Source of the DNA: an uncultured Methanosarcinaceae archaeon
GTDB taxonomy: Archaea > Halobacteriota > Methanosarcinia > Methanosarcinales > Methanosarcinaceae
Direction: 5' to 3'
Length of the DNA: 64,000 bases
NCBI GenBank assembly: GCA_963733675.1
Contig: CAVTET010000004.1
Span: 32,001-96,000 of the forward strand
Below are positions 7,380 through 26,155 of this stretch, in pieces; position 1 is the stretch's first letter; every line of letters begins with the position of its first letter. The notes under the pieces were generated by a model. The model was not told the origin of the DNA and did no database searches. It saw only the letters and a list, made by a program, of their open reading frames with translations. The translations under genes and the position numbers were made by a program.

Positions 7380-8476
7380 ACTTTTTTCCCCGAATTCTGG
7401 CTTGATATGGAAATGATGGGAGATGCAAAACTTTTTTCCCCCTGGGAAGTACCTTCAAAATTTTGTCTGTAAAGCCCGGGTATAAAAGTCCTGAATTGAT
7501 TGAACTTGACCATAACCTTCCCACTGTCAATAGCATCTTCAGCAATAGGAATTGCTTGCCTGATTGAACCTACTATTCCACTCACATAAAGAGCAGCAGC
7601 TGCATTAATGACTACCAGATCCCTTTTCGGACCTTTCTGCCCCTTGAAGATGCCCAATAGATCCCTGGCATTTTCTTGAGGGGACCCACCGATAATATCT
7701 CCTGGACTTGCTTTTAGAATACCAAGAGACTCTGGGGTTAGAGTATAAGTTGAAACAATACCGTTTTTTAATTCCGCAACAAATGTCTCACCTATGTTTG
7801 AGATCTCGTCCATCCCATCTCCATGCACTACCAGCGCCTGCTCAATTCCAAGTTCTGCAAGAGCATATGCTATCGGTTCGCATAGTCTTTTATCAAAAAC
7901 TCCTATTACCTGGCCTTTAACGCCTGCAGGATTTGTCAAAGGCCCAAGGATATTGAAGACCGTACGGACCCCAAGTTTTTTTCTGATTCCAGCAACTCGC
8001 TTCATTGTAGGGTGGAAGACTGGAGCAAACATGAACCCTATACCTATTTCTTCTATTGCCCTTCTGACATGTTCCGGAGCCTGGTAAACCATGATACCCA
8101 GGGCTTCAAGCACGTCCGAACTTCCTGACATTGATGAAACAGCCCGGTTTCCGTGTTTAGCTATCGGAACACCTGCTGCCGCGGTCACGATTGCTGCCGC
8201 TGTTGACACATTGATAGTATTAAGACCATCTCCCCCAGTCCCGCAAGTATCCACAAGCCTGAAAGTTACTCTGGGTTTGATTGTATGAGCTGCTTTCTTC
8301 ATGCCCCTCACAAAACCTGTGATTTCTTCGGATTTTTCACCTTTTGCCTTCAAAGCAAGCAGAAATTCTCCAATCTCGTCATCCTTAGCCGTACTTAGAA
8401 TTAATCCTATTGCATTTTCAGCTTCTTCAGAACTTAGATCACGTCCTTCGTTCAATTTTTTTATGTATCTTTCCAT
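7376..8476 (-). CDS. trpD: anthranilate phosphoribosyltransferase
   Basis: DTCGTGGDG, KHGNR and FNILGPLTNP motifs. Confidence 0.95.
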   Translation of the reverse strand: MERYIKKLNEGRDLSSEEAENAIGLILSTAKDDEIGEFLLALKAKGEKSEEITGFVRGMKKAAHTIKPRVTFRLVDTCGTGGDGLNTINVSTAAAIVTAAAGVPIAKHGNRAVSSMSGSSDVLEALGIMVYQAPEHVRRAIEEIGIGFMFAPVFHPTMKRVAGIRKKLGVRTVFNILGPLTNPAGVKGQVIGVFDKRLCEPIAYALAELGIEQALVVHGDGMDEISNIGETFVAELKNGIVSTYTLTPESLGILKASPGDIIGGSPQENARDLLGIFKGQKGPKRDLVVINAAAALYVSGIVGSIRQAIPIAEDAIDSGKVMVKFNQFRTFIPGLYRQNFEGTSQGEKSFASPIISISSQNSGKKV

Positions 8477-10844: not shown

Positions 10845-11651
10845 TTATTCACGCCAGCAAAGACTCTGAACTAATTCTTCAGTTGTTTCAAAAACAGAGT
10901 CGCTTTCCATAATCGCAGACCCTATCAATACAGCATCTGCTCCAACCTGGATAACTCTCCTAATATCTTCTGCGTTATTCATCCCGCTCTCACTTATAAT
11001 GAGATGTCTGGTCCCATGGTTAACGTCGTACTCTCGGATGAGGGGGGCAAGCTCTTCTGTAGTAGCTAAATCGATTTTAAGTGTCTCAAGACTTCGGTTG
11101 TTAATCCCAATAATCCTTGTGATGGTTTTCAGTGCAAGCTCAAGCTCGGCTCTGTTATGAACTTCAACCAGCGGTTCAAATCCCTTTTGAAGAGTAAGTT
11201 CGACAAAGGTCAGTAGCTCTTTCCCAAGGATACCTGCAATTAGGAGCACCAGATCGCTCTCTACTTCCTCAAGCTGCCTTCTGTCAATAATAAAATCCTT
11301 CCTAAGGACAGGCAAGAATATATTTTCTCTCACTGCATTCAAATTTTCAAGTGAGCCCCGAAAAACTCCTGGCTCTGTTAAAACCGAAATTGCAACAGCT
11401 CCAGCCTGTTCCATCTCCCGTGCAAGCCTTACAGCTGTTGCAGGCAAAATATCTCTGAAAACTTTACCCGGAGATGCAGGTTTGATCTCCGCAATTACTG
11501 GTATTAACCCTTCAGCCTTTGCACTTTCAACCGCAGAGAGGAAATTCCTTTTCTCAAATTGTATTCCAATATATTCAGAGCATTTATGCGGTCCTAAAGC
11601 CTGAAGGCGTGTTTTTGTTGTGGTTAGGATGTGGAGGATAGTGGCGTGCAT
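10845..11651 (-). CDS. trpC: indole-3-glycerol phosphate synthase
   Basis: IAEIKPASP, LRKDFI, GINNR and ISESG motifs; ATG at 11651. Confidence 0.93.
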   Translation of the reverse strand: MHATILHILTTTKTRLQALGPHKCSEYIGIQFEKRNFLSAVESAKAEGLIPVIAEIKPASPGKVFRDILPATAVRLAREMEQAGAVAISVLTEPGVFRGSLENLNAVRENIFLPVLRKDFIIDRRQLEEVESDLVLLIAGILGKELLTFVELTLQKGFEPLVEVHNRAELELALKTITRIIGINNRSLETLKIDLATTEELAPLIREYDVNHGTRHLIISESGMNNAEDIRRVIQVGADAVLIGSAIMESDSVFETTEELVQSLCWRE

Positions 11652-11663
11652 TAACAATCACTG

Positions 11664-11720
11664 ATGTATATTTAAGTACAATGATGCATAATACAGCACT
11701 TCTTATAAATAGGTTTTGGA
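11664..11720 (-). promoter_or_regulatory. putative trp operon promoter with TGTA-N8-TACA operator-like palindrome
   Basis: Minus strand CAAAACCTATTTATAAG resembles BRE/TATA; TGTATATTTAAGTACA lies at 11665-11680 between TATA and trpC start. Confidence 0.45.
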
Positions 11721-11779
11721 TCAAACAGCATTTCCGAATAAAAATAAATAACATGTAGCCTTTAAGGATAATGATATTA

Positions 11780-11801
11780 ATGGTAATAGGATTTACAATG
11801 A
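11780..11801 (+). pseudogene. detached 5' end (MVIGFTM) of the Lrp/AsnC gene
   Basis: ATG GTA ATA GGA TTT ACA ATG joins in frame to ORF 23726-23938 across the shared ACAATGATAAAT. Confidence 0.8.
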
Positions 11802-11930
11802 TAAATATGTATATGGAGTCTGGTAGGTTACGCCAGCTGAATTAGCAGCAAGAGTATACGTCAATCCAAGCGATACACTATCACCGATTTTCTGTTGAAT
11901 TTCAGGAGTTAATTTAGTAGGTCTTGCCAT
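11793..11930 (-). pseudogene. truncated HTH protein, terminase-small-subunit-like N-terminus (45 aa)
   Basis: MARPTKLTPEIQQKIGDSVSLGLTYTLAANSAGVTYQT...; GGTG RBS; reading frame runs into attL and stops. Confidence 0.55.
11795..11816. repeat. attL (ACAATGATAAAT direct repeat plus element arm TAAATATGTATATGG)
   Basis: 12-bp exact repeat of 23723-23734; arm is an inverted repeat of 23709-23723. Confidence 0.8.
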
Positions 11931-12623
11931 TGATAACACCGTTTTTTACTATTTAAAATAAATATCAATTAATGTTGTATTTATATTTTCTTAGTTCCCT
12001 TTGACACAACGACGGGGTTTATGTGCATAAAATCAAAAATGAGCTATTCTAGAGCGTTTAGACCAAATTAAATGCCCACAATTTTGTTGACAGACGACGG
12101 TGGGTGACCACGAGATATATTTCATATACGTTTTATTACTCTTAAAGTATAGAACTTATGTTATACTTATTCGTATTTGGTCTTTAGATAGGAAATGCAC
12201 TTTTAGATATAGTTGGGTTAAAAAATAAAGCGTAGACTTTATGGGAGAACTGATTTGGGCTGAGTTTTGGATATATAGTTTAGCGACCGTGGTGCATATA
12301 ACAGAGATACTATAGTATAATCTTGATCCTGACAGAGCCCCTGAAAGGATTACGACTGTTTCAGTGTACTGTTTAGCTTTGGCAGTTTGTTCGGTTGCGG
12401 TGGTTTTTGTGATCTATGTTTATCTGGAATTAATTAAAAAATAGTAAATAGCGAATTTATTTGATATTTATTTGATGATTTTCGCTAATTTAAGGAATTT
12501 TATTTGAATTATTTGATTCATTTCAGTAGTTTTTGTCACTTTTATTTAATAATTGAATTGATCTTAGGATTTATTCGTCAATTTATGACTAACATCGGAG
12601 ACGTCAAAAACGTTTATATTCCG

Positions 12624-13400
12624 TTATAACTCAGCCTTCCACTCATTAGCCTGGAATTGCTTCATCATATTCGCATTCTCATCTGGCTTTACAGTACGGT
12701 AAAGATGATGGTCAGATGGAATCACTTCAACCATAATATCGATCATTTCTTGTGGATCGTTCTGATGAGAAAAAATATCTTTGAAGTAAGGGAATTTTAT
12801 TAAATTTTTATCAGGATCGTACCACTGAGATACACTTTCTGCTCCAGTATCATTAAAACCAGTTAGGAATGCGCCTGGATTAATAGTCGCGACTTTCACA
12901 CCATAGGGCTCTAGCTCTTCTTTCATTGCCCAAGCAATGGCTTCGATAGCATGCTTAGTAGCGCAATAAGTTCCTACAAACGGTACCTTAAAAATTCCAG
13001 CCACCGATGAAATCCAAATAACCTTACCATCGCCTTGTTTTATCATTTTACGCGCAAAGCCCTGCGACAGCTCTAGATGACTGAAAACATTTGTCTCAAA
13101 GGATTCACGTACCCTTTCCAGAGGTATATCGACCATTGCACCACTTTCCATAATTCCGGCATTATTAACTAGAATATCAATGTCATAGGTCAGCGCACGC
13201 TGCTGATCGATATAATCTCGAATATCGAGCTTAACTACTTCAAGTTCGATAGCTTGTTCTTTGGCTTCACATCTTAAATCCCAGACCTGGGACCAGATTT
13301 GTGCAGCAGCAATAACTTTATGACCTGCCTTTGCCAAACCAAATGCTATCCCTTTACCAAAACCATGTCCAGCACCAGTAATAAGAATTGTCTTGCTCAT
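12624..13400 (-). CDS. short-chain dehydrogenase/reductase
   Basis: TGAGHGFG, NNAG and YCATK motifs. Confidence 0.92.
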   Translation of the reverse strand: MSKTILITGAGHGFGKGIAFGLAKAGHKVIAAAQIWSQVWDLRCEAKEQAIELEVVKLDIRDYIDQQRALTYDIDILVNNAGIMESGAMVDIPLERVRESFETNVFSHLELSQGFARKMIKQGDGKVIWISSVAGIFKVPFVGTYCATKHAIEAIAWAMKEELEPYGVKVATINPGAFLTGFNDTGAESVSQWYDPDKNLIKFPYFKDIFSHQNDPQEMIDIMVEVIPSDHHLYRTVKPDENANMMKQFQANEWKAEL

Positions 13401-13508
13401 AATTTCGTCCTTCTTTCTAATTCATTAAATTCATTCCTCCCCCTTTTAGTCTCACAATCTGTCTCGTAGGAGATAGCCTGTGTGTTCACATTCGATCCTA
13501 TTTCAATT

Positions 13509-15863
13509 TCACTGCCGGACCATGGCAATACGCATCTCAGCTTCCTTATCTTCTATCAGTTGGCCGCTTACATCCACAGTCACGCTACGGATCTTGCCTG
13601 TGAACTCAAAGGGAGGACGGTAGTCTGGTGTGACTGGTGATCTATGAGCTGACCCACAGGTTACTCCACCAGTTAGTCCTAATGCAAACGGAGTAGTCAC
13701 AGGTACATCAACTTGACCGACTAACTTTCCATCTATAAATAGCTTAGCAATTCCAGGTGAACCCTTACCATTAGCAAAATCTGGCTTACCTGTTACCTCG
13801 AACTCAAACCCGAGTTGATGTCTCCCTTCAGGAACATTCTCATTGGACTCTACATGATAGAAAGCCCTAGATACGTAGTTGTATACCCAGTGAAGCTTTC
13901 CGTATTTGACATAGAATGAATATCCGCCATCGATACCACCATGAGAGAGTAATATCCCTTCAGCTCCTCCTGCAGGGATCTCAACATCGGCTAAAATACT
14001 ATGCGAGCGGTTGAGAACGTTGACTGCTACAGTTGCGGGGATCTCCTGAGTTCCGGGATAATAGGTGTAGTGCGTTCGATTAATTGTAATACTTGGCCGT
14101 TCATCAGTAATACGCAAAACTCCGCGACCATCAATAGGTAGCACATTATATTTTCCGGCTTCTGCATACCATGTGGAGATCATCTCAATTAATTTCGATC
14201 GATTCTCAGCAGCCACGTTAAAATTCTCTGCCCAATCCTTCTCAATATGATAAAGCTCCCAGCCTTTTGCGTCTAGCTCAGTTAATGTATCTGCAGAAAT
14301 AGGTTCGCCGAATGGTTTTCCTGCTTCAGTGAAAGAAAGGCCAGGCCATGGACATACGGCACGCCAGCCATCATGATACAGTGAGCGGTGTCCCATCATC
14401 TCGAAGTACTGTGTATGGTGCTTGGTTGGCGCATTGACATCGGCAAATGTATGTGCAAAACTTACCCCTTCGATAGGTGATTGACTTACACCTTTGATAA
14501 TAGTAGGAGGTTCAATTCCCAGGCATTCCAGAACTGTAGGTACCATATCAATAGCGTGAGCATACTGAGTGCGAATCTCTCCTTTAGCCTCAATTCCTCT
14601 GGGCCAGTGGACTATAAATGGATCACTTATACCTCCGCGATAAGTCTCTCTTTTCCAACGGCGGAAGGGTGTATTTCCAGCAAATGTCCAGCCCCAGGCA
14701 TAATGGTTGTAAGTCTCTGGACTCCCTAGTTTATCTAGAGCTGCGAGATTCTCCTCGAGAGATTCGAGCACATTATTGAAAAATCTGGATTCGTTAATTG
14801 ATCCCGTGGGACCACCTTCAGCACTTGCTCCGTTATCGGAAATTACCATGATCAACGTGTTCTCAAACTCGCCAATATCTTTCAGTAATTGCAACAGCCG
14901 ACCAATATGGTAATCGGTGTGTTCTAAGAACCCTGCAAAGACCTCCATCATACGGGCATAGAGTTCCTTTTCTTCAGGTGAGCATTTGTCCCAGGTCTTG
15001 ACATCCGGATCATGCCGAGATAGCTCTGTTTCTTTTGGAACTATACTAAGTTCCTTCTGCCGAGATAATGTAATCTCCCGGTAAAAATCCCAGCCGTCAT
15101 CGAATTTGCCTTTGTATTTGTCTGCCCATTCCTTCGGAACATGGTGAGGAGCATGCATGGCTCCTGGACAGAAGTACATGAAAAAGGGCTTGCTAGGTGC
15201 GACTTGTTTGGAGTCAGCAATGAACTGGATTGCCCTGTTCACTATATCCTCATTTAATGTGTAACCCTCTTCTGGAGTTTTGGGAGGGTCTATGGAATGA
15301 TTATCATATATAAGCTCAGGATAATACTGGTTTGTCTCACCTCCTAAGAAACCGTAGAAACGCTCGAAACCCCGTCCCAAAGGCCATCTGTCATAAGCCC
15401 CCGCTGCCGATATCTGTTCTGCAGGGGTCAGATGCCATTTACCGATAGCATAGGTGCTGTAACCATGTTGCAGAAGCATCTCTGACAAAAAGCCATTCTC
15501 AAAAGGTATATAACCATTATAGCCTGGATAACCAGTCGAGCCTTCGGTGATGCAGGCCATGTTGTTAGAATGATGGTTTCTGCCGGTAAGCATGCACGAG
15601 CGGCTAGGTGAGCATAGTGCAGTAGTATGCATATTGGAATAGGCAAGCCCCCCAACAGCTAAACTATCAAGGTTGGGTGTATGGATAGGGCTACCATAGC
15701 ATCCAAGTTGTCCAAATCCTGTGTCGTCCAGGATGATGAACAGTACGTTAGGAGCGCCCTCTTTAGAGCGCAGTGGTTCTGGCCAAGCTGGCTCTGACTG
15801 ATCTTCTGTGCGGGCGATTACACCTGGAAAAGTAGTTCCTGGTTTGTATTCTTTCATTGACAC
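13509..15863 (-). CDS. arylsulfatase (Cys-type, CxPxR)
   Basis: LDDTG, LCSPSRSCMLTGR, GKWHL and SDNG motifs; probable GTG start at 15863 after GGAGG. Confidence 0.92.
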   Translation of the reverse strand: MSMKEYKPGTTFPGVIARTEDQSEPAWPEPLRSKEGAPNVLFIILDDTGFGQLGCYGSPIHTPNLDSLAVGGLAYSNMHTTALCSPSRSCMLTGRNHHSNNMACITEGSTGYPGYNGYIPFENGFLSEMLLQHGYSTYAIGKWHLTPAEQISAAGAYDRWPLGRGFERFYGFLGGETNQYYPELIYDNHSIDPPKTPEEGYTLNEDIVNRAIQFIADSKQVAPSKPFFMYFCPGAMHAPHHVPKEWADKYKGKFDDGWDFYREITLSRQKELSIVPKETELSRHDPDVKTWDKCSPEEKELYARMMEVFAGFLEHTDYHIGRLLQLLKDIGEFENTLIMVISDNGASAEGGPTGSINESRFFNNVLESLEENLAALDKLGSPETYNHYAWGWTFAGNTPFRRWKRETYRGGISDPFIVHWPRGIEAKGEIRTQYAHAIDMVPTVLECLGIEPPTIIKGVSQSPIEGVSFAHTFADVNAPTKHHTQYFEMMGHRSLYHDGWRAVCPWPGLSFTEAGKPFGEPISADTLTELDAKGWELYHIEKDWAENFNVAAENRSKLIEMISTWYAEAGKYNVLPIDGRGVLRITDERPSITINRTHYTYYPGTQEIPATVAVNVLNRSHSILADVEIPAGGAEGILLSHGGIDGGYSFYVKYGKLHWVYNYVSRAFYHVESNENVPEGRHQLGFEFEVTGKPDFANGKGSPGIAKLFIDGKLVGQVDVPVTTPFALGLTGGVTCGSAHRSPVTPDYRPPFEFTGKIRSVTVDVSGQLIEDKEAEMRIAMVRQ

Positions 15864-16176
15864 ATCTTTTCCTCCAATCGCTAATTGACATTTTGTAAAG
15901 CTCTGAAAGAGAAGGCTAAATAGGGGAAAAAACTTTATTATTTTGACCACTTTTTGTTAGAATTCGTAATTTGGCATGTCCACGAGTTTTTGAAAATTAT
16001 AACCATAAGGCTCGTCCTACATTTCTCTAAAAATGGGAAAAGCACTTGTTTTTCATATTTTATCAATGACTCAAGGATATGACTCACAATTTCTTGCCTG
16101 AAGATCAATTATTAAAAAAATAAAGTGGTTTCCAGAGAGTTTATTCCCTGGTAAAAATCTGCTTTCCCGACTGACT

Positions 16177-16665
16177 TTATTCTTCGGCAAAAGTTGCACG
16201 CAGTTGGCTTTCTTCTTCCTTTGACAGGTTGGTAGCAATTATTTCAAACTTGGACTTTTTCATAACTTCTACTACTCTATCCTCAACAGCATCGCTAGTC
16301 ATCAGGAAGAGAGCTGAAGTGCCTTCAGTCACTTTGTTGCGAACAGACTTTATGAAATCTTCATTAATACCCACGTGGGTCATGGAACCGGCAAATGCGC
16401 CTATTGCTGCACCAGCAACCAGGCCAACCAAAGGAATGAAGAAGAGGATACCAAATAGTAGACCCCAAAAAGCGCCGCTCAGTGCACCTTCACCGGTCAA
16501 ATTAGTCAAGTGCTTTGTTTTTGGTTTAGTTTTTCCTTCAGGCCAAGTGACTATAGCCGCATCATGTAGTTTTATCATTTGTTGCTTACTTAAGTCCTCA
16601 ATCACTTCAAGTTCATTTTCTGCACCATCAGCAGTGTCAAACTTCAAAACTGTTAAAGTTGCCAT
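16177..16665 (-). CDS. DUF1269-family membrane protein
   Basis: MATLTVLKF...GALSGAFWGLLFGILFFIP...GTSALFL pattern. Confidence 0.85.
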   Translation of the reverse strand: MATLTVLKFDTADGAENELEVIEDLSKQQMIKLHDAAIVTWPEGKTKPKTKHLTNLTGEGALSGAFWGLLFGILFFIPLVGLVAGAAIGAFAGSMTHVGINEDFIKSVRNKVTEGTSALFLMTSDAVEDRVVEVMKKSKFEIIATNLSKEEESQLRATFAEE

Positions 16666-17133
16666 TACTCAATCTCCTTTCATGCGTTCATATTTATTTC
16701 GCAGTTTTTTGGGTAGCATGCCGATCAAAGCTACACGTCTTTTTGTAATCTTCAACCTGAGAACTGCTACGATTTAGAAGAGCCGAAACAAGTCGTTTTA
16801 TCAGCTGGTAATCTAAAAATTGACCATGCGCTAGGTTGTTATCGGCAGCGTTGCAATCCATTGGTTAGGTGATCCATTAATAAGTATTATGCTTTTTTCC
16901 AATTTAAGGTCCATTCTCTCGCTCAAAATTTTCCCATATAACCGCAACTCTAGGACTTTTACCAGTCCACGGGTTTCTAATACATTCTTTTTTCGCGAGT
17001 CAAATTTTAAATGAATTTATGGGACACGTTGTTGTTTTTCATAATATCGGTTTATAACGATGTAGCTTTATCTGATACGACATATTATCTAAAATGAGAT
17101 ATATATTTGCATTAATTTTATTATCTGAAATCA

Positions 17134-17487
17134 TTATTTGGTTATTAAGGCGTGTGTTTTTAAAGTGGGGTACTCTTCATAACAATTGTCACATAAAACA
17201 GTTACAGTAGGGCTTTTACCCCGTTGTCTTACAGTTTTTATCATCCCACATTTTTCTAACTCATCCAATGCTTTCGGAAAAGCCCAACCTGGGATAGGTA
17301 GAAATAAGTTTATGCCCTTTAGGGTGACTACTAAGTCTTTAGATTTCTTAACTCCTTTTAAATGCCAAATATACATAGCCATCCTGTATGTATGCCCCAC
17401 CGAATTGGAAGGTAACTTTATAATCCATTCTGAAGGCATTTGCGATATGAAAGAGCCTTTTATTTTATCTTTAGAATTCACTAGCAT
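17134..17487 (-). CDS. small winged-helix protein, candidate origin-binding/Rep protein
   Basis: C-terminal KALDELEKCGMIKTVRQRGKSPTVTV wHTH-like signature; adjacent to repeat array and polA. Confidence 0.7.
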   Translation of the reverse strand: MLVNSKDKIKGSFISQMPSEWIIKLPSNSVGHTYRMAMYIWHLKGVKKSKDLVVTLKGINLFLPIPGWAFPKALDELEKCGMIKTVRQRGKSPTVTVLCDNCYEEYPTLKTHALITK

Positions 17488-17499
17488 ACTTTACCCCAG

Positions 17500-17725
17500 T
17501 TAATATTATCATTAAATATTAAGAAGAAATAAAGAAGATATATTAAAGAAATATAAGTAGTAAAACAGATATCATGAGACGTTAGAATTTAGCTGCACAG
17601 CTAATTAATTTTAGCTGCAGAGCGAAATATATTTTGCTGGGCAGCTAATTAATATTACTCCACAGTTAAATTGGAATTTGGCTCTACAGCTAAATAGAAA
17701 AGTTTGTCCAGAGGCTTTGAGCCTC
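17500..17725. repeat. candidate replication origin: AT-rich tract, five palindromic boxes (consensus TTAGCTGCACAGCTAA) and hairpin
   Basis: Boxes at 17589, 17611, 17633, 17654 and 17678 (spacing 22, 22, 21, 24); AT-rich 17500-17570; GAGGCT-TTG-AGCCTC hairpin at 17711-17725. Confidence 0.7.
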
Positions 17726-17739
17726 ATTTATGGTGGGTT

Positions 17740-19509
17740 TTACTCTTGTTTTACTTCTGTGAGGATTCGCATAATAAGCTCCCAAGTTTCGGCACCTTTC
17801 TCATCTATATACCTGTCAGGATAGCGGACAATATCGACATCTGTTTTCAATCTGTTACCTGCACCCAAAACGATCTCGGATGCATCACACACCAACTTTC
17901 TCGCTATCTCTATCTCTTTGTCTACCGCCTTTTCGTCGCACTCAATCGTCAACGCATCGTGAACTGGAGCAACAATTTTAATTTTATTTTTTGAGAGAAG
18001 GATGCATGCCACTCTAAGAATTTCAGCTCCAGTAGCTTGGATTGGGAAATTTTGAACGGTCAACATTTCCTTATTACTGGAGCCTGAAACAATCATTTTC
18101 CATTTGTAGCAGGTTTCGATCCTTTTCATTAAACAGGCTTGAGTCCACGTCATATCTACCCAACGCCAATAATTTTTGAAGACTCTTTTGTGATGACTAA
18201 GCAGTTCTTTTGCATAAGGTGTAGGCTTATCAATTTTAAGACCAAGTGATTCTGCACCCAAGCCATACTGAACGCCTAGTACACAGGATTTAAAAAGCTG
18301 CCTCATACTACCATGCGTTTCTTTTGTAGCGTCTGCTGGAACTGCACCTGCCAGTTTTGCAAAAGCCAGATATGGATCCCTACTTCTATATGCCTCAATC
18401 ATATTGGGGTCATTAGAGAGAACTGCCGCAATAAAGAACTCTTGCTGCGCATAATCAATATATGCAAGCACTTTTTCTTCAGTAGGTTTTATTAAACTTC
18501 TCAGACTAGCAGGAAGTCCAAACATAAACCTAACTCTTAATTCTCCTCTATTCTTTTTTTCTTCGTCATCCTTAGGGGCATTTCTACCTGTCTTAGTCCA
18601 GAATGGGGAGATTAAGGTTCGACTCCTGCCATCTGAACCAGCCATAATAGACTTAAAGTTTAACCCACCGATAAGAGCTCTTAATTCCTTTAAAGGCCTG
18701 ATTTCGATATGGATTTCTGCCATTTCCTTAAAAGTTTCCGTGTCTATTTTTGGCAAATCCGTATAAGTTCTTGGCCACACCCAATTATGGACTTGAAGTA
18801 ATCTCACAAAATTATTTATCTTAAAACTTGTACCTTCATAAATTCCAAACTTGTCAATATTTTTGATTAACTTTAATTTTATTTTTTCCCAGTTTTCTTG
18901 TAACTTGTTAAGTAGATCGGTATCTATTGGTATACCATTATACTCAATTTCTGCCACATATTTCATATACTCCCCCCGATATAGAGAAGTTGGTATATCA
19001 AAATCAGGGACTTTAATCATTTGTTTGAATAACTCTGCTGTTTCAAGCACGTCAGATTCACAATAACGCATAATGTATTCTTGATCTTCTTCAGAGTCAG
19101 GACCGCCAGCTAAAATACGATCTCTTGCAGCGTCTTTCTCCACTTTGCTAATGGTCTCTATGCCAAAAGCTTCACACGCATCCAGTAGATTTGCGCCTCT
19201 TCGTTCATAAGAATGATTAGAAAAGCACCTGTACTCCACGAAAGTATCAATGATATTGGATGGTAAAGGCCAGTTTAAGATCAGGTGACGTCCCCACTCC
19301 GCTGAACTCATATGAGCAACAAATAAGTCATTCTCACCTATCTAGTAGGGTGGCTGTGGATTACTTTCTTCAAAAAGCCACATTTTTTTAGTTTCTCCAG
19401 AATTTATCTCATGGGAAGCAACACAAACAGGTATTGGATGTTCGCTCGGTTTCGCGATAAACTCAAAGTCTATCACGTAAATGTTATCAAAAAATTGTAG
19501 GGGGAGCAT
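17740..19509 (-). CDS. family A DNA polymerase (3'-5' exo + polymerase, 589 codons) with in-frame TAG at codon 56
   Basis: ExoI DFEF; motif A DYAQQE; motif B RQLFKSCVLGVQYG; motif C VHDAL. ATG 19509 is in frame with ORF 17740-19311 through a single TAG at 19342-19344. Confidence 0.88.
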
Positions 19510-20078
19510 TAAAGCTCGCCTCTGAGTCTCTTTAAAATAGGGTGGTTATAGTCATCTATAAACCGGTCCTTGAAAGCTATCTCGATAGCTTTGACTATGT
19601 TTTCCGGTTCGTCAGGCCATTCAGGTTCAGGAAGTTTACTTATCGCTAAGACGATATCGTAAGCTCCGATTGAGTAATTCCTTTGCAGCTTTACCCATTG
19701 AGTTTCCCCTGTGGTGTATGCGATCCGTCGGGTACGATTGAACTCATTGTCCTTACCTTCCGCGTCAGGTTGGGCTATTTCTGAGAGAAAAATTTCACCT
19801 GACCCGTAGGTAATTCCAACGTGAATTCTGACAAGCTTTAGCCTTTTTGTCTCCATCACCTTAGGATACAGATCTGGATTGAGGAGGTCTTTTCCTTCCC
19901 CTTCACTGTTGCCACCTAAATCCAAGAGAGAAGTGTCGAATTTCCATTCTGGCCCTGGCCTGATCCTGAAAAATTCCACACCAGTGTTGGGTTTTTTAAG
20001 AGGAATTGAAGTCACCACGCGCTTTATAAGGATGGGGGTAACTTCGGTAACTCGGAGAGCCTCAAAGTTAAAAGGCAT
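19509..20078 (-). CDS. polA-coupled hypothetical protein (possible ssDNA-binding or accessory factor)
   Basis: 189 aa; GGAGG RBS; stop overlaps polA start (TAATG); ends PILKRLRGEL. Confidence 0.8.
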   Translation of the reverse strand: MPFNFEALRVTEVTPILIKRVVTSIPLKKPNTGVEFFRIRPGPEWKFDTSLLDLGGNSEGEGKDLLNPDLYPKVMETKRLKLVRIHVGITYGSGEIFLSEIAQPDAEGKDNEFNRTRRIAYTTGETQWVKLQRNYSIGAYDIVLAISKLPEPEWPDEPENIVKAIEIAFKDRFIDDYNHPILKRLRGEL

Positions 20079-20227
20079 CTAAAAAACCTCCATACTTGAA
20101 GTAAAAGTTGCTAGACTATACATGCAACTGCTAGATGCAGAGCTAAAAAAGAAACTATATTTGATATGAAAACTCTATCATTCATAATGCATCACTCTTT
20201 GTTTATGGGTTGATCTGTTCTCGTGGG

Positions 20228-20569
20228 TCACTCGTGCGAAAGTAAGCATCTTTCAGTGGTGTTTTGCGAAATTTCCGACTGCTTGGCCGCTGTGGACATT
20301 CGCGAATCACTAACTGCAACGTTTTTAATTAAGATGGCTTGTACTTTATCATATACATATCCTGTTTTGAGTATCAAAGCAACCTCTACTCTCGTTTTAC
20401 TGTTTCCAGAGTTGCTTCTCCTCTTATCGATGGATGCTCTTATTGGCAGGAGACGTACCTTAGCCATTTTCTCGATTTTGATCATTGTTTTATGTACTTT
20501 GGAAAGATGCTGATCAAGTTTTACATCTATCGTTAAAGTTTTATTTTTATAATATCTATTATTCATCAT
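20228..20569 (-). CDS. hypothetical basic protein
   Basis: 113-aa ORF co-oriented with the element's operon. Confidence 0.45.
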   Translation of the reverse strand: MMNNRYYKNKTLTIDVKLDQHLSKVHKTMIKIEKMAKVRLLPIRASIDKRRSNSGNSKTRVEVALILKTGYVYDKVQAILIKNVAVSDSRMSTAAKQSEISQNTTERCLLSHE

Positions 20570-20638
20570 GATGCCCTCGATATTTTGATAGCCGGCAGTA
20601 TCTTGATCCGTATGCCGGTTACAATTCTAAGTATATTT

Positions 20639-20881
20639 TCATTTTTCAATTTTACTGTTGTTGTTTTTATCTCTGGATTTACTGATTTCATCCAAAGCAT
20701 AGGCAAAGCTGTCATAAAAGCACCCTGCTTGCAACTTATGGAAGATACAAAAAAAATCAGTATTCAGAGCCAAGTTAAGTTCGATCAAATACCTTAGCTG
20801 GGATAGCTTCTTCTTATCAGGAGTAACTTTCCATTGGATTTGTGGAAGTTTGATACTTCCTACAATCTTGTTTTTAAGCAT
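20639..20881 (-). CDS. hypothetical protein
   Basis: 80-aa ORF with GGAG RBS. Confidence 0.45.
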   Translation of the reverse strand: MLKNKIVGSIKLPQIQWKVTPDKKKLSQLRYLIELNLALNTDFFCIFHKLQAGCFYDSFAYALDEISKSRDKNNNSKIEK

Positions 20882-20947
20882 TAATCTCCACTCCTGCTGT
20901 TTTTAATATATCCTTCGCAATAACCCTATTTAACGGATTATCACTTT

Positions 20948-21253
20948 TCAACATGAGCAATAAAACTTCGTTATTTTGCTCACTAACAAGTCTTGCCCAT
21001 TCCGAAAACGAAAAAAATTATCTTTTCTGGTTATAGAGTTCATTACATTCACCTTCTTCCAGATGGTTGTGTTAATCTCGGTTCTGCGGGCCCGGTAAGA
21101 TTCTACAGGAACTGGGGTTATGATAATTCTTTGTTCATTGTCCATTTCGATCTTTACGTTTTCAGGATTCTCTGACCTGATCCACTGTATCGGCAGACTA
21201 ATTAAAAAGCTGCCTCCTTGTCTAAATATTGATCTTTTACCGATATTGAGCAT
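20948..21253 (-). CDS. AbrB/MazE-type DNA-binding protein
   Basis: RSIFRQGGSFLISLPIQWIR...VKIEMD..IIITP swapped-hairpin pattern; GAGGT RBS. Confidence 0.7.
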   Translation of the reverse strand: MLNIGKRSIFRQGGSFLISLPIQWIRSENPENVKIEMDNEQRIIITPVPVESYRARRTEINTTIWKKVNVMNSITRKDNFFRFRNGQDLLVSKITKFYCSC

Positions 21254-21424
21254 TTATGTTACCTCAATTTGACTTCGATATGACTAATGTTATAATTTTA
21301 TATATAGTTTTATATATTGATAAATAGATTTATTAGAACAACATATTGTGAGATAATAATATACATCCAACATGTTGGTAAAATATCACTATTATTTAAT
21401 AGAAGTTACAATTTGTCTTATAAC

Positions 21425-22228
21425 ATGGAAGAAAAACCTATCAAGAAAACAATAAAAGACAAAATTTTAGAAAGCTTAGTATATTATCCGAAAACAAACA
21501 CTCAACTGTTGCAAGAGCTGGGTTATAGTAATAAACAACATGGTAACATTTCTAAACAATTAAATCAGCTAAAAACAGATGGGTTTATTGTTGATGGAAA
21601 AGAAAAATCTCCAAATATAGATGACTATGCTACATCATGGTCAATAGTTCCAACTCTAGAAAATTTTAGGTATATAGGAAAAGATCCAAATTTAGTACCA
21701 GTGTTGCAAAAAAAAGATGTTGTTCTCGAAATTATTGCGGAGAACATGCGTGTTTCAATTATTCAAGATGTTATTCTGGATATAGACGCTACTAGTTCTC
21801 TTATAAGTAAGAAAATAATTAGAGGAGATCAGGAAGAATTATATTCACTTCTTGAAAAGCCTAAAAGAAAATTTAAGGAAATGTTAAAATTATCTCCTGT
21901 ATTCTTCAAATTTCATCTACTTCATGAAGATTACAACACGGACTCATGGAGTGATTTTGAAAGGGATATTGAAGAATTAGGACATATAGCTAAATTTCAA
22001 CTTATCCCTCCTCGTAATATAGTACGGTATTATCTATTTCTGAATTCATATGATTTTAAATTTTGTGTTGGTATAGATATGTTATATGGAAAATTAAGTG
22101 ATGAGGCAAAGAACTACTGGATTGAAATAAAAAATTATTTGAAAGAAGAAGAAATAAATATTAAGCCCATCACAGAAGCCGTCAGAAAAGCCATCACAAA
22201 ACAAGAATATAATTCTGCATTGAAATAA
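21425..22228 (+). CDS. wHTH-domain protein, putative element regulator
   Basis: KILESL...TQLLQELGY..QHGNISKQLNQLKTDGFI wHTH pattern; probable start MEEKP. Confidence 0.7.
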   Translation: MEEKPIKKTIKDKILESLVYYPKTNTQLLQELGYSNKQHGNISKQLNQLKTDGFIVDGKEKSPNIDDYATSWSIVPTLENFRYIGKDPNLVPVLQKKDVVLEIIAENMRVSIIQDVILDIDATSSLISKKIIRGDQEELYSLLEKPKRKFKEMLKLSPVFFKFHLLHEDYNTDSWSDFERDIEELGHIAKFQLIPPRNIVRYYLFLNSYDFKFCVGIDMLYGKLSDEAKNYWIEIKNYLKEEEINIKPITEAVRKAITKQEYNSALK

Positions 22229-22337
22229 ATTTTCTCTAAAGATCTTTTACCTAAATTTCTAAAAATATTAAAAGAATTTGTATTACAATATTATTGTCTA
22301 ATTGAGGAATTGGTTTCGTTTTAGACAACCATTAAAA

Positions 22338-23640
22338 TTACTTTTCATTTTTAAGCATGGCCTCCTTCAATTTAGAAATTTCGTCAAGCTCCCTTTTTAA
22401 TTCGTTCTTCATTTCCCATATTTTTTCAAGGTCTGCATATTGCATATAGTCAGCTTTGATAGATTCGGTGGCCTTCATTTTTTCTATCTCTGCCTTGAGT
22501 TCCTGCAGCTCCGATCTTTCCACAACATGCCTGGCTGTTTCAGCTTGTAAAATCTGATTTTCCTGTTTGATCCGCAGGTACTCAGGACTTTCTGAGATAT
22601 CCATCTCTTTTTGAATTGTAAGATAAGGCATATATTTTCCAATATCTTTGCTAAAGAGTTTTGATCAGATCGAAAATAAGCGGCTTTAGTTCTATCAATT
22701 TTATGTCCCATTGTAAACTCAACAAAGAAAGAGTCACAACCAACATTTAACAGAGCAGAGTCATAGTATTTCCTTATATTGTGACTTCGCATGATATTCC
22801 ATTTCCCTTTAGGTGTTGATTTACTGGCTTTCTCATTAAGCATTCTGTATATCTTGAGGAACGAATTCCTTTCAAGCTTCCTTAGAGACTCATCTTTTTT
22901 ATCAAGCCATTCAGCAGGTATTTTTCGACCAATGAAAAGGTAATCGTTGTCAGAGTAAACATGTTGCTTCTGTAATTGTTTTTGTTTCCTTATATCGGTT
23001 GAGTCAGATTTCCTATTTCTAAAATCTAAATAATCAATTACTGCTTGACTAGTTTCTGGCGTCAGAAATGTGATAAAATCTACCTTAGTTTTACCTCTAC
23101 GTAGTTTTAAAGTTGTTATTCCAGTTGTGGAATCATATCTATCCTTGAAGTTTCCAACTTTTAAATTTATGATCTCATTTGAACCTAATCCACTGCTTAA
23201 ACCTACTAAAACTACAGCTATTTCTAGCGGATCAGCCACTTTTAATATTATTTTAATATCATTTTTTGAAGTATCTCAATGTTACTTTCTAATACTGTGG
23301 ACTCAAGATTCCTTTGTTTAGGAAATTGAATATTATAATATGTATAAAATGACTGAATAGCCATTATATAACCTCGAATAGTGTTTGGAGCAAGATTCTT
23401 GTTTTTTAAATGCTGTTTAAATCTAGGAATATCAACGAAGATCGATCTTTCATCCATTAGCATTCCTGCTTTAATCTCAGCTTTAGCTTCAGTTATAAGT
23501 TGATCTGGGATTTTGGACAGAAACTCACAGTAAGCATTTATAGAATGCGTATAATTTCTTCTGGTATTAGATGAAGCTTCAATAGCTAACATCCAATTGT
23601 CTACCTTGGTAGACAATACAAAGTTAATATCAACAGTCAT
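22338..23640 (-). pseudogene. tyrosine recombinase/integrase, split by two frameshifts
   Basis: SAM-like N-terminus (23248-23640), catalytic core SSGL..EI, HNIRKY, MGH, AYF (22484-23239) and coiled-coil tail (22338-22631); single-base shifts near 23270 and 22640. Confidence 0.85.
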
Positions 23641-23708
23641 AAGTAATTACCTCTATCATTTCATCCATTTTAAAATATTCGTTTTCCAAAAAATTTAGGG
23701 TTGTGTTA

Positions 23709-23734
23709 CCATATACGGTATAACAATGATAAAT
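23709..23734. repeat. attR (arm CCATATACGGTATAA plus CAATGATAAAT)
   Basis: Direct repeat with 11795-11806; ~70 bp from integrase start. Confidence 0.8.
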
Positions 23735-23938
23735 GTGCTGCCAAGCTATGAAAAGGCAGCATATAGGGAATTTAGGACTATAGAAGGAATTAAAGACGTT
23801 TACCATGTCTTTGGAGAATATGATTTTGTAGTAATTATTAATGTCAAAGACCTTAGCACACTTAATTCAGTAGTGGACAGGATAAGGGAAAGCGAAACAG
23901 TAACCGCTACCCAGACAATTGTTGGGGCAGATCTTTAA
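23726..23938 (+). CDS. Lrp/AsnC ligand-binding (RAM)-domain protein, missing first 6 codons
   Basis: IEGIKDVYHVFGEYDFVV..V..L..VVDRIR....T.T pattern. Confidence 0.85.
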   Translation: MINVLPSYEKAAYREFRTIEGIKDVYHVFGEYDFVVIINVKDLSTLNSVVDRIRESETVTATQTIVGADL

Positions 23939-24289
23939 ACTGGAAGTCTCAAAATAAGATTAGGCCGTTTGATGTAAATGAAAAACATATATTTTTTAAA
24001 AAAATTCTGGATTTTTATACTTTAAACTTTTATCGACATCAATCTCTTGCTTCCAAAATTCTCATAAATAATTCGGTTTGAATAATCACCACAAAAAACT
24101 ATATTGAAATTTATGCCGAAGAAGAGACATTGATAGAAAGAATATTTTATCGTTGCGAGAAAATACTACTAATAAAAGCATCTATAATCTAAATTCCTGC
24201 CTCAAATATTTATAAGGTAAATAATAAGAGAACATTAGTTTTATTCTAAGGAAATGTTAGATTAATTTTTCAACCTGAGGTAAAATTCT

Positions 24290-26155
24290 ATGGAAGTCCC
24301 TATTGCAGAAGAACTTGCCAAAAAACAAAAGTCTATAAGTGTCGCCGAATTTTTTGAAAAAAATAGGCACATCCTAGGTTTTGACTCTGCACCACGAAGC
24401 CTTATCACAACAGTAAAAGAAGCCGTTGACAACGCTTTGGATGCCTGTGAAGAAGCAGGAATCCTGCCTGACATCCTTATCCAGATCGAAAGGGTGGAAC
24501 AGGACTATGTAACCGTCATTATAGAAGATAATGGACCAGGAATCATAAAAGAGCAAATACCAAAAGTTTTTGCAAAATTACTGTATGGTTCGAGGTTTCA
24601 TTCCCTCAAACAGAGCAGGGGACAACAGGGAATCGGAATCTCTGCAGCCGTGCTCTATAGCCAGATGACCACAGGCAAGCATACGAAAATCCTCTCCAAG
24701 ACAGGACTTAATACCCTGGCCCATTATTATGAGCTCATGATCAATACCAGCACGAATGAGCCCGATATCCTGAAAGACGAAGTAAAGGATTGGTTTCGCG
24801 CCCACGGAACCCAGATAGAGCTGGAGATGAAGGCTGCTTACGTAAAAGGAAGACGGCAATCTATTTATGAGTACCTCAAAGCCACAGCAATTGTAAACCC
24901 TCATGCAAGGATTACCCTGGTCGAACCTGACGGCAACGAGGAAGTTTTTGAAAGGGCTACAGATAAAATGCCGGACCTTTCAGAAGAAATATTGCCCCAT
25001 CCAGAAGGTATCGAGCTAGGTACTCTTATGAAAATGCTGCATCACACAGAGCGCCAAAAACTTGCCTCTTTTCTTAGATACTCTTTTTGTAAAATCGGCC
25101 TACTCACTGCCGAAGAAATATGTAAGGCTGCAGGGCTTGACCCTGAAATAGACCCTCATTTTCTTAGCCATCATGAAGCAAGAAAACTAATTGAGTCATT
25201 TGAGAAAGTAAAGATCATGGCGCCTCCCACAGACTGTCTTTCCCCAATAGGCGAAGAGCTGATTTACAGGGGGCTTGAAAAAGAAACAAAAGTGGACTTT
25301 ATTGCTACAAGCACACGAAAACCGGCTGTATATTCAGGAAATCCCTTTGTAGTAGAAGTGGGGCTTGCTTACGGGGGAAATTTATCGAAAGAAGAAAAAA
25401 TTAGCATAATGCGTTTTGCTAACCGTGTTCCTTTGCTTTACCAGCAAGGAGGATGCGTGACCACACACGCAGTTGAAGATATTAAGTGGAAGCAGTACGG
25501 CTTAAACCAGCCCGGAGGAGGAATTCCTGTAGGTTCAGCCCTCCTTCTAATTCATGTAGCTTCCATCAATGTGCCTTTTACATCAGAATCAAAGGACGCT
25601 ATTGCTGACATTCCTGTGATAAAAGAAGAAGTGAACCTTGCAATCAAAGATGTTGCCAGAAAACTTAAACACTATTTGAGCAAGCAAGACAATCTCAAGA
25701 AACGCCGAGAAAAAGAAATAATTATCACAAAAGTGCTCCCAAAAATGGCATTGAAGGTTGCAAATATCCTGGGCAAAGAGGTTCCTGACATAAATCCTGT
25801 TGTTGCAATGATTATGGGGAATCTGCTTGTGTACAGAAAAGTGAAAAAGAATGAGGAAGGGACTGCACATATTGTAATCAAAATCAAAAACTTTGGGAGC
25901 TCAACCCATTCCTTCAGGATACATGAGATGCTGCCCTGGACAATCAGCAGGGCAAAGCCTGAGCCAAAAATGGTTACTATAGGCAACGATTATGACTATA
26001 TATGGGAAGTTTCGGCAGCAGTAGGGTCTTCAAAGGTGCTCAGCTACATAATAGAACATGCAACAGACAAAGAGCTAGGAAAACTCCCTGATCTCATTGT
26101 AGAAGGGATCGAAGAAGAGCTGGTTACAGGAGCAAAGGCCTTTAAGGAGATATAA
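24290..26155 (+). CDS. top6B: DNA topoisomerase VI subunit B
   Basis: [33 protein letters not shown] and PFTSESK motifs. Confidence 0.97.

Follow-up and report, generated by a model that had tools for sequence, protein, structure and literature searches.

A probable site-specific insertion of a plasmid-like element, now decayed, in a RAM-domain gene of an uncultured Methanosarcinaceae archaeon

How did a small gene between trpC and top6B come to be split, with its first codons lying 11.9 kb away from the rest? The locus is found in a stretch of 64,000 nucleotides from an uncultured Methanosarcinaceae archaeon (contig CAVTET010000004.1, positions 32,001 to 96,000), here called the window, and the split gene encodes a RAM domain, that is, a stand-alone Lrp/AsnC ligand-binding domain. 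Very probably, positions 11795-23734 are a circular plasmid-like element that was inserted site-specifically by a tyrosine integrase and that has since decayed.

The boundaries of this insert are real and exact to the base. The 12-mer ACAATGATAAAT is present in exactly two copies in the window, at 11795-11806 and 23723-23734, both on the plus strand, as a sequence-only reading of this DNA had reported. By chance 0.02 copies are expected, and two or more copies were seen in none of 100 shuffles. The same reading had proposed a precisely bounded element of 11.9 kb, 11795..23734, and had pointed to the trpC-Lrp-top6B locus of related genomes as the place to look for an empty site. Such a site exists in G019, the closest related genome (about 90% DNA identity): trpC, an intact 76-codon RAM-domain gene starting with MVIGFTMINV, and top6B are contiguous, and the breakpoints are the same. 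Window 11000-11806 aligns to positions 2980-2173 of the G019 locus L002 and window 23723-24400 to positions 2184-1501, and the two flanks overlap in G019 by exactly 12 nt. In a three-way alignment G019 is matched by the left junction as far as the repeat and by the right junction from the repeat onward.

A second empty site was found among the contigs of four soil-metagenome runs (X1, X2, X5 and X6, from two studies); the runs were compared as contigs, from which rare forms drop out. In a 546-nt contig of X2, position 11794 is joined to 23723: 11928 nt are skipped, and 12 letters fit both sides. This contig differs from the window at 13 of 346 nt on the left and at 2 of 200 nt on the right, and therefore represents a close but non-identical strain with an empty site. 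Together with the 12-nt overlap in G019, it bears out the proposed element ends. Contigs of X1 match both junctions of the window without differences. Further, relatives of the right flank are present in 33 of the 41 genomes searched, and the native 5' end adjoins the RAM gene in seven more genomes (G017, G003, G005, G006, G015, G014 and G010). No third copy of the 12-mer inside the insert stands out: when up to two mismatches are allowed there are 25 matches in the 64-kb window versus 19.8 expected. As such near-matches are no commoner than chance, there is no internal att copy, and the idea of two tandem elements, with a third att site inside the insert, was rejected.

The target is a protein-coding gene, as had been claimed before: there is no tRNA gene in the 64-kb window, and it is the RAM gene that is split. 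The accompanying statement, that tRNA genes are the more usual archaeal target, needs qualification. Archaeal att sites within protein-coding genes are on record, and as summarised in PMC8371274 they are less unusual than was implied. The displaced 5' end lies at 11780..11806 on the plus strand, in the layout seen in G019, G015, G017 and G006. It starts with the ATG at 11780, keeps nine codons (MVIGFTMIN) and the native promoter region upstream, and then runs through 12 element codons to a stop. The remainder, at 23726..23938 on the plus strand, is an open frame of 70 codons assigned by Pfam to AsnC_trans_reg (PF01037; 44.3 bits with a cut-off of 25, 65 of 70 residues covered), and it has no DNA-binding helix-turn-helix (HTH) domain. 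The intact RAM genes of G015, G017 and G006 encode 76 amino acids.

The truncated gene appears to be maintained. Its 70-codon frame is open in nine of nine occupied genomes and in all four of the metagenome loci examined (out of 11), and the internal ATG of the core is kept in eight of the nine genomes. Since the frame is open in all occupied genomes checked, the truncated RAM gene would still be under selection, and it is presumably expressed from the arm of the element that now lies upstream of it.

What does the att site look like? The left site, attL, has its core at 11795..11806, the left copy of the direct repeat, as defined by the sequence, the G019 alignment and the X2 contig. It is followed by an element-side arm (P' arm) at 11807..11830, read from the sequence, which holds GTATATGG at 11809-11816. 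The right site, attR, consists of an integrase-proximal arm at 23641..23722, which holds CCATATAC at 23709-23716 and now forms the DNA upstream of the shortened RAM gene, and of the core at 23723..23734, the right repeat copy, with the ATG at 23726 from which the RAM gene now begins. When the element ends are joined, CCATATAC and its reverse complement GTATATGG each lie 7 bases from CAATGA. The rebuilt attP thus has a perfect 8-bp inverted repeat centred on the middle of CAATGA. A perfect inverted repeat of at least 8 bp centred in the 12-mer arises in 1.2% of 20000 random joins of window sequence; for a core-centred repeat of the same length the frequency is 1.35% in joins from the AT-rich part and 0.85% in arm shuffles. 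The rebuilt attB of the window has a 5-bp inverted repeat (ATTTA/TAAAT) with the same centre, and this shared centre is suggestive, though 5 bp is an ordinary length.

The conserved parts of the att site are the core and the integrase-proximal arm (GGTTGTG...CCAT...CGGTATA). In G073, whose integrase at this site is 83% identical, attP has no inverted repeat better than 5 bp, and that one has a slightly different centre; attB lacks any that reaches 4 bp. The palindrome that the sequence-only reading proposed to look for beside homologous integrases is therefore not present at this one. Of its description of a symmetric attP, the 8-bp repeat around CAATGA is real, while the geometry typical of tyrosine recombinases is something we infer, because a repeat of this kind arises at about 1% by chance, is not kept in G073, and the inner left arms differ. 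A symmetric 15-6-15 core is plausible, if unproven, and CAATGA is the likely overlap region.

The same site is used elsewhere in the genus. The arm and core pattern was found in 9 of 59 genomes, with no matches in the reversed control, and always directly upstream of the RAM gene. An integrase gene or a stub of one lies just upstream of the pattern in eight of these nine genomes; in the ninth, G072, the contig holds only 231 nt there. The gene is full-length in G073 and in three pieces in the source genome of the window (G000). In the other genomes it is reduced to residues 1-159 (G069), 1-106 (G012), 1-67 (G018), 1-63 (G013), 1-40 (G020) and 16-49 (G045). The opposite end, attL, was found in four of five further genomes searched as well as in G073, and the remnants in the further genomes span about 0.9-3.5 kb.

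The most complete counterpart is that in G073, where an intact integrase of 414 amino acids lies beside the same RAM gene. Integrase, arm, RAM gene, top6B and top6A are collinear with the window, with a DNA identity of 78.7% for the integrase and 80.2% for top6B/top6A, and no other part of the window element matches. The attR core of G073 is CAATGATAA, its attL is 33.7 kb away, and the 9-bp repeat shared by the two lies inside the 12-mer of the window. As to the contents of this 33.7-kb insert (G073:C1:1119971-1153668; loci L044 and L045), about 15.5 kb were examined. By eye, an open reading frame (ORF) of 669 amino acids resembles a primase-polymerase and one of 320 amino acids a transposase, the latter placed between a 238-aa ORF and the 669-aa ORF.

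To follow the history of the site, a maximum-likelihood tree was made from 849 nt of top6B in seven occupied and seven empty genomes; G069 and G072 (loci too short) and G005 (no top6B in the locus) were left out. The tree has at least four changes between the occupied and empty states, and the well-supported branches force four. Consequently, repeated integration or repeated precise excision is likelier than a single event, as far as one gene segment can tell. Judged from these genomes, the RAM gene appears to be a genus-wide integration hot spot.

A different kind of event may be recorded in G015. In locus L013 (C1), at about 8160-8267 and 12010-12117, there are two copies of about 75 bp of the RAM gene 5' end. 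They belong to a duplicated block of 3.85 kb, and their distances from the intact RAM gene, which lies downstream, are 3.2 and 7 kb; no integrase was seen among ORFs of at least 70 amino acids. The copies were rejected as instances of the present att core, as the homology begins at the gene start and not at the core. They may be remains of a different type of element that used a longer att site in the RAM gene.

The enzyme that would have made the insertion is encoded by a pseudogene at 22338..23640 on the minus strand, identified with Pfam and by DNA alignment. It is a tyrosine integrase (PF00589, Phage_integrase, 37.4 bits versus a cut-off of 27.1) with SAM-like domains, and it also matches phrog_216. 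Its start codon, at 23640, lies 83 bp inside attR. Homologues were found in 30 of the 59 genomes. The motifs RxK, (S/A)HxxR, GH and aromatic-Tyr are present in the pieces in the window and in nearly all of 20 full-length homologues; L042 has no clear AY motif. However, the column of the first catalytic arginine (Arg-I) does not hold an arginine: 16 of the 20 homologues have Ser there, the other 4 have Ala, and the window copy has Gly. In the HMMER alignment the arginine of the XerA GVR motif is placed opposite the serine of the GLS motif of G073. An arginine two residues before the hairpin lysine (Arg-x-Lys) is invariant in all 20 homologues.

The integrase gene is broken in three frames: 23640-23248 holds the N-terminal SAM-like part, 23239-22484 the catalytic part, and 22631-22338 a C-terminal coiled tail. 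Full-length relatives have 402-507 amino acids. Alignment to the intact G073 gene shows two 1-nt deletions: at about 23271 CC has become C, and at about 22641/22642 ATATATG has become ATATTG. Both are outside long homopolymers, and contigs of X1 (22255-24157), X2 (22329-22749), X5 (23152-23476) and X6 (22657-23045) have no indel at these places; the nearest contig indels, at 22285-22313 only, are downstream of the gene. As a separate observation, the tail at 22338-22631 (minus strand) is nearly identical to that of L038, and the catalytic part is about 48% identical to L038. This hints at module swapping within integrase genes.

The second lesion is in the DNA polymerase gene of the element (17740..19509, minus strand), which encodes a family-A enzyme with an N-terminal 3'-5' exonuclease-like part in about 590 codons and contains a single in-frame TAG, at 19342-19344. 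In ten rows of homologous loci, two of which are the same place in G019, this position is Ser in eight and Pro in two. The TAG was thus rejected as a conserved pyrrolysine recoding site, and because of the Ser and Pro residues we take it to be a nonsense change. The cargo genes are open. The element, as read from these lesions, is probably immobile.

Where did the element come from? A second copy of its backbone, L066 (G000:C4:160000-179999), is found 120 kb away on the same contig. Window 11845-11996 corresponds to L066 7887-8038 (77% identity) and window 17044-20490 to L066 8514-11953 (82%), with merely about 480 bp between the two stretches in L066. Because L066 joins the homologous stretches without the block in between, window 12000-17040 would be cargo within a backbone of about 7 kb. 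On these comparisons the insert reads as a mosaic of three parts: a plasmid-like backbone of about 7 kb, with the polymerase, the iterons and genes for small DNA-binding proteins, about 5 kb of cargo, and an integrase/att module. The module is not that of the sister copy, as the 429-aa open integrase frame of L066 is just 49% identical to the window integrase. No borders could be set for L066: flank searches in five genomes were swamped by repeats, and no convincing direct-repeat pair was found. Two further features of this copy can be mentioned. It adjoins a nifH-like gene, and it has a frame of 683 amino acids that joins the polymerase to the C-terminal portion of an upstream protein of the 189-aa type described below.

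The backbone polymerase belongs to family A by its profile matches (PF00476, DNA_pol_A, 90.9 bits versus a cut-off of 34.3; phrog_17, E=7e-51), and it is only 22-26% identical to the PolA of phages and plasmids. Within the genus, 8 of the 59 genomes have it; the source genome has 17 matches, many of them fragments. A wider search gave 1277 proteins at E<=1e-10, many on contigs of 3-10 kb; some bear the labels Methanosarcina mazei, M. barkeri, Methanosalsum and Methanoperedens, and some come from bacterial metagenome-assembled genomes. Between the genes for the polymerase and a 117-aa protein, at 17587..17657, there are three 22-bp iterons, imperfect palindromes resembling TTAGCTGCnCAGCTAA, which also occur at L066 9054-9123. 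The array is a putative replication origin or operator. Summed contig depth in the four runs is 2-5 times that of the rest of the insert at 11827-12253 and 16097-18658, with many variant letters, as would be expected if several related backbone elements occur in these communities. A weak joint from 11932 to 17560 in X2 was considered as a cargo-less variant and set aside; with a side of 28 letters it is too short to count.

The cargo block (12000..17040, minus strand) is absent from the backbone copy and differs from the rest of the element in G+C content, 0.43-0.46 versus 0.30-0.38. By Pfam it encodes a short-chain dehydrogenase/reductase (SDR) oxidoreductase at 12624-13400, a sulfatase at 13509-15950 and a DUF1269 membrane protein at 16177-16665, all on the minus strand. 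The sulfatase is present in 28 of the 59 genomes, mostly with one or two matches but with 6-8 in G000, G019, G066 and G067. A comparison of coordinates places several of these additional matches no more than about 12 kb from a polymerase match on their contig. In G000 only the window copy is a full-length open sulfatase frame (query residues 2-813), the other six matches covering at most 635 residues. In G020, G074 and G044 the sulfatase gene likewise has a DUF1269 gene next to it (78-81% identity).

The remaining genes of the insert are on the minus strand with one exception. At the left end, 11793..11939 holds a stub of about 45 codons, MARPTKLTPEIQQK..., derived from a 138-aa HTH gene of the backbone and cut at the att junction. 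The full homologue is at L066 7556-7972; it belongs to no Pfam or PHROG family, and its look-alikes in the Atlas, which are clusters of phage HTH and small-terminase-like proteins, give no more than a lead. The 117-aa backbone protein (17134..17487) is 85% identical to the L066 copy by tblastx and has no Pfam or PHROG family. The 189-aa backbone protein (19509..20078), whose stop overlaps the polymerase start and which has a homologous stretch in L066, has no family in Pfam or PHROG and nothing in the Atlas. Three small ORFs of 113, 80 and 101 amino acids follow at 20228..21253, called at the ORF level, and the last of them is weakly AbrB/MazE-like at its N-terminus (E=0.0036 with the Pfam family MazE_antitoxin, which is below the cut-off). 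The exception is a 303-aa protein on the plus strand (21317..22228), beside the integrase gene. It is 26% identical (E=1e-13) to a 336-aa counterpart in the same position in L066, has no Pfam family, and looks winged-helix-like at the N-terminus by eye. No capsid, packaging, conjugation or Cas1 families were found among the scanned ORFs of the insert in Pfam or PHROG.

Outside the insert, the genes are trpD, trpA, trpB and trpC on the minus strand (IGPS 208.6 bits) on one side and top6B and top6A on the plus strand on the other. The G+C content is about 0.42-0.45 in the flanks. Most of the insert is at 0.30-0.38, apart from 13000-16000, which reaches 0.43-0.46.

The history that we propose is the following. 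A tyrosine integrase would have placed a circular element in codons 6-9 of the RAM gene between trpC and top6B of a Methanosarcina-like genome, with strand exchange within the shared 12 bp, most likely in CAATGA. The backbone, which has many copies in the source genome, would replicate with its own family-A polymerase and the iteron array. It would have captured cargo of about 5 kb, in which the sulfatase-DUF1269 pair is one that is adjacent in other species of the genus, and it would have carried an integrase/attP module unlike that of its sister copy, a module that seems to have struck the RAM gene repeatedly across the genus. Integration would have moved the promoter and the first six codons of the gene 11.9 kb away, while the internal ATG of the core and the new upstream DNA from the integrase-proximal arm would have let a 70-codon gene survive. 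After insertion the integrase would have been lost through the two deletions and the polymerase through a Ser to TAG change, with the cargo left intact. The outcome would be an immobile fossil with the only intact copy of the sulfatase in the genome.

A number of observations weigh against this history. The element-side arm TTGTGAAnnTnnAnAAGGAAG is common to G073, G045 and G012, and the window arm differs from it. Given this difference and the cut HTH gene, part of what is now seen could stem from recombination that followed an earlier insertion. Among the contigs of the four runs there is neither a circular form nor an attP junction; as contigs drop rare forms, the missing back-joint says nothing on rare circles. 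An exact 26-mer from the right end of the window has no matches in metagenome and viral contigs, and a degenerate pattern of the arm finds 11 metagenome loci that are all of the attR type (11/11), two with a full integrase, seven with stubs and two with none. X1 is possibly the source sample of the genome, and its contigs would then not be independent support. With Arg-I replaced by Ser, Ala or Gly, the activity of the integrase clade can be deduced from genomic outcomes only. Finally, this organism probably decodes some TAG codons as pyrrolysine, and low-level production of the polymerase is possible.

This last point leads to the question of whether the element could still be intact and mobile, its breaks being sequencing errors or being bypassed by frameshifting in the integrase and by reading TAG as pyrrolysine in the polymerase. 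TAG can be decoded in Methanosarcina, and the empty-site contig of X2 is 96-99% identical to the flanks, so that closely related populations hold both the occupied and the empty allele. However, the deletions lie outside long homopolymers and are matched by contigs of four runs from two studies, two separate +1 shifts would be required, and where the window has TAG all ten homologue rows have a Ser or Pro codon; we regard an intact element as very improbable.

Two other histories concern the order of events, and both appear unlikely to us. The insert may have been built in place, from an old integrase/attR remnant at the RAM gene, like those of G013, G018 and G012, with which the polymerase element and its cargo recombined later; no 11.9-kb circle would then have integrated in one piece. 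Remnants of 0.9-3.5 kb with both att sites do exist in four other species, the left arm of the window is unlike theirs, the HTH gene stops right where the junction lies, and the sister backbone copies use an integrase of 49% identity. Yet there is a clean empty site with native promoter and N-terminus in both G019 and the X2 strain, from which the lineage was most simply empty shortly before. In addition, the two 12-mers are free of mismatches, and the breaks fall at the core that the window and G073 have in common. The other possibility, also a poor candidate, is a single insertion in the ancestor of the genus, inherited vertically, with the empty sites as precise excisions; the RAM gene would then not be a target that is hit again and again. 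The similar DNA identities of the G000 and G073 integrases (78.7%) and of top6B/top6A (80.2%) would agree with it, and most occupied genomes keep decayed stubs only. Against it are the state changes, at least four among 14 genomes, although this argument rests on one 849-nt gene segment; the closest pairs mix states, as for G000 with G019, and for G017 beside G012, G045 and G073. The contents are also wholly different, an 11.9-kb polymerase element in the window versus 33.7 kb in G073. Further, precise excision requires an active integrase and therefore itself implies activity over time.

Site-specific insertion followed by decay, the history that we prefer, has several relatives among known systems. 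Classical non-suicidal archaeal elements of the pNOB8/SNJ2 type, as outlined in PMC8371274, are alike in the short direct repeat, in the integrase gene beside the att site, in a host gene target whose function is kept, and in the empty site in relatives. In contrast to that outline, the target here is the 5' end of a RAM gene and not a tRNA gene, the integrase lacks Arg-I, and the copy is inactivated. The suicidal integrases of the SSV type, in the account of PMC7253208, are alike as archaeal tyrosine integrases of small plasmid- or virus-like elements. There the att site is inside the integrase gene and splits it, whereas here it is 83 bp upstream of the integrase start, and what it cuts is the stub of the neighbouring HTH gene.

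For bacteria, PMC4482086 describes a family of integrases directed at the 5' end of dusA. By that description the logic is the same: a dedicated clade repeatedly puts varied islands in the 5' end of one conserved gene. The dusA integrases are bacterial and their target gene is unrelated, and the likeness is one of logic. For the missing arginine a precedent is outlined in PMC8138268: in the IntDOT-type integrases of Bacteroides conjugative transposons the first Arg is absent and a downstream Arg takes over. The clade in the window likewise misses the first Arg of the RKHRH pentad and has an Arg before the hairpin Lys. By analogy, this invariant arginine may substitute for Arg-I. A mostly summary-level literature search found nothing on integrative elements of Methanosarcina with a polymerase A, or on the RAM gene as a target.

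A more general claim can be made only tentatively, and we would put it as somewhat doubtful in its entirety. It is that the window holds one decayed example of two things for which no published account was found. One is a family of self-replicating integrative plasmids of about 7 kb, built around a divergent family-A polymerase, which would have picked up a sulfatase module, carried by other species of the genus too, and multiplied it in one Methanosarcina subclade. The other is a clade of archaeal integrases with an invariant Arg-x-Lys in the hairpin in place of Arg-I. On the 14-genome tree this clade would have inserted unrelated elements at least four times at codons 6-9 of the conserved RAM gene upstream of topoisomerase VI, each time exchanging the promoter and N-terminus of a gene that stayed under selection.

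In kind this is an ordinary site-specific insertion, and the current understanding of site-specific recombination is unchanged by it. What the locus adds is a genus-wide hot spot, an arginine-less integrase clade and a polymerase-A plasmid family with sulfatase cargo. It is a case of a target gene that survives although its own promoter and its first six codons have been taken away, and of host genes moved by an element, the sulfatase-DUF1269 pair being captured and amplified. Methanosarcina is a genetically tractable genus of methanogens, and the base-exact set of attB, attL and attR, together with the intact enzyme of G073, would be raw material for a site-specific integration tool in it.

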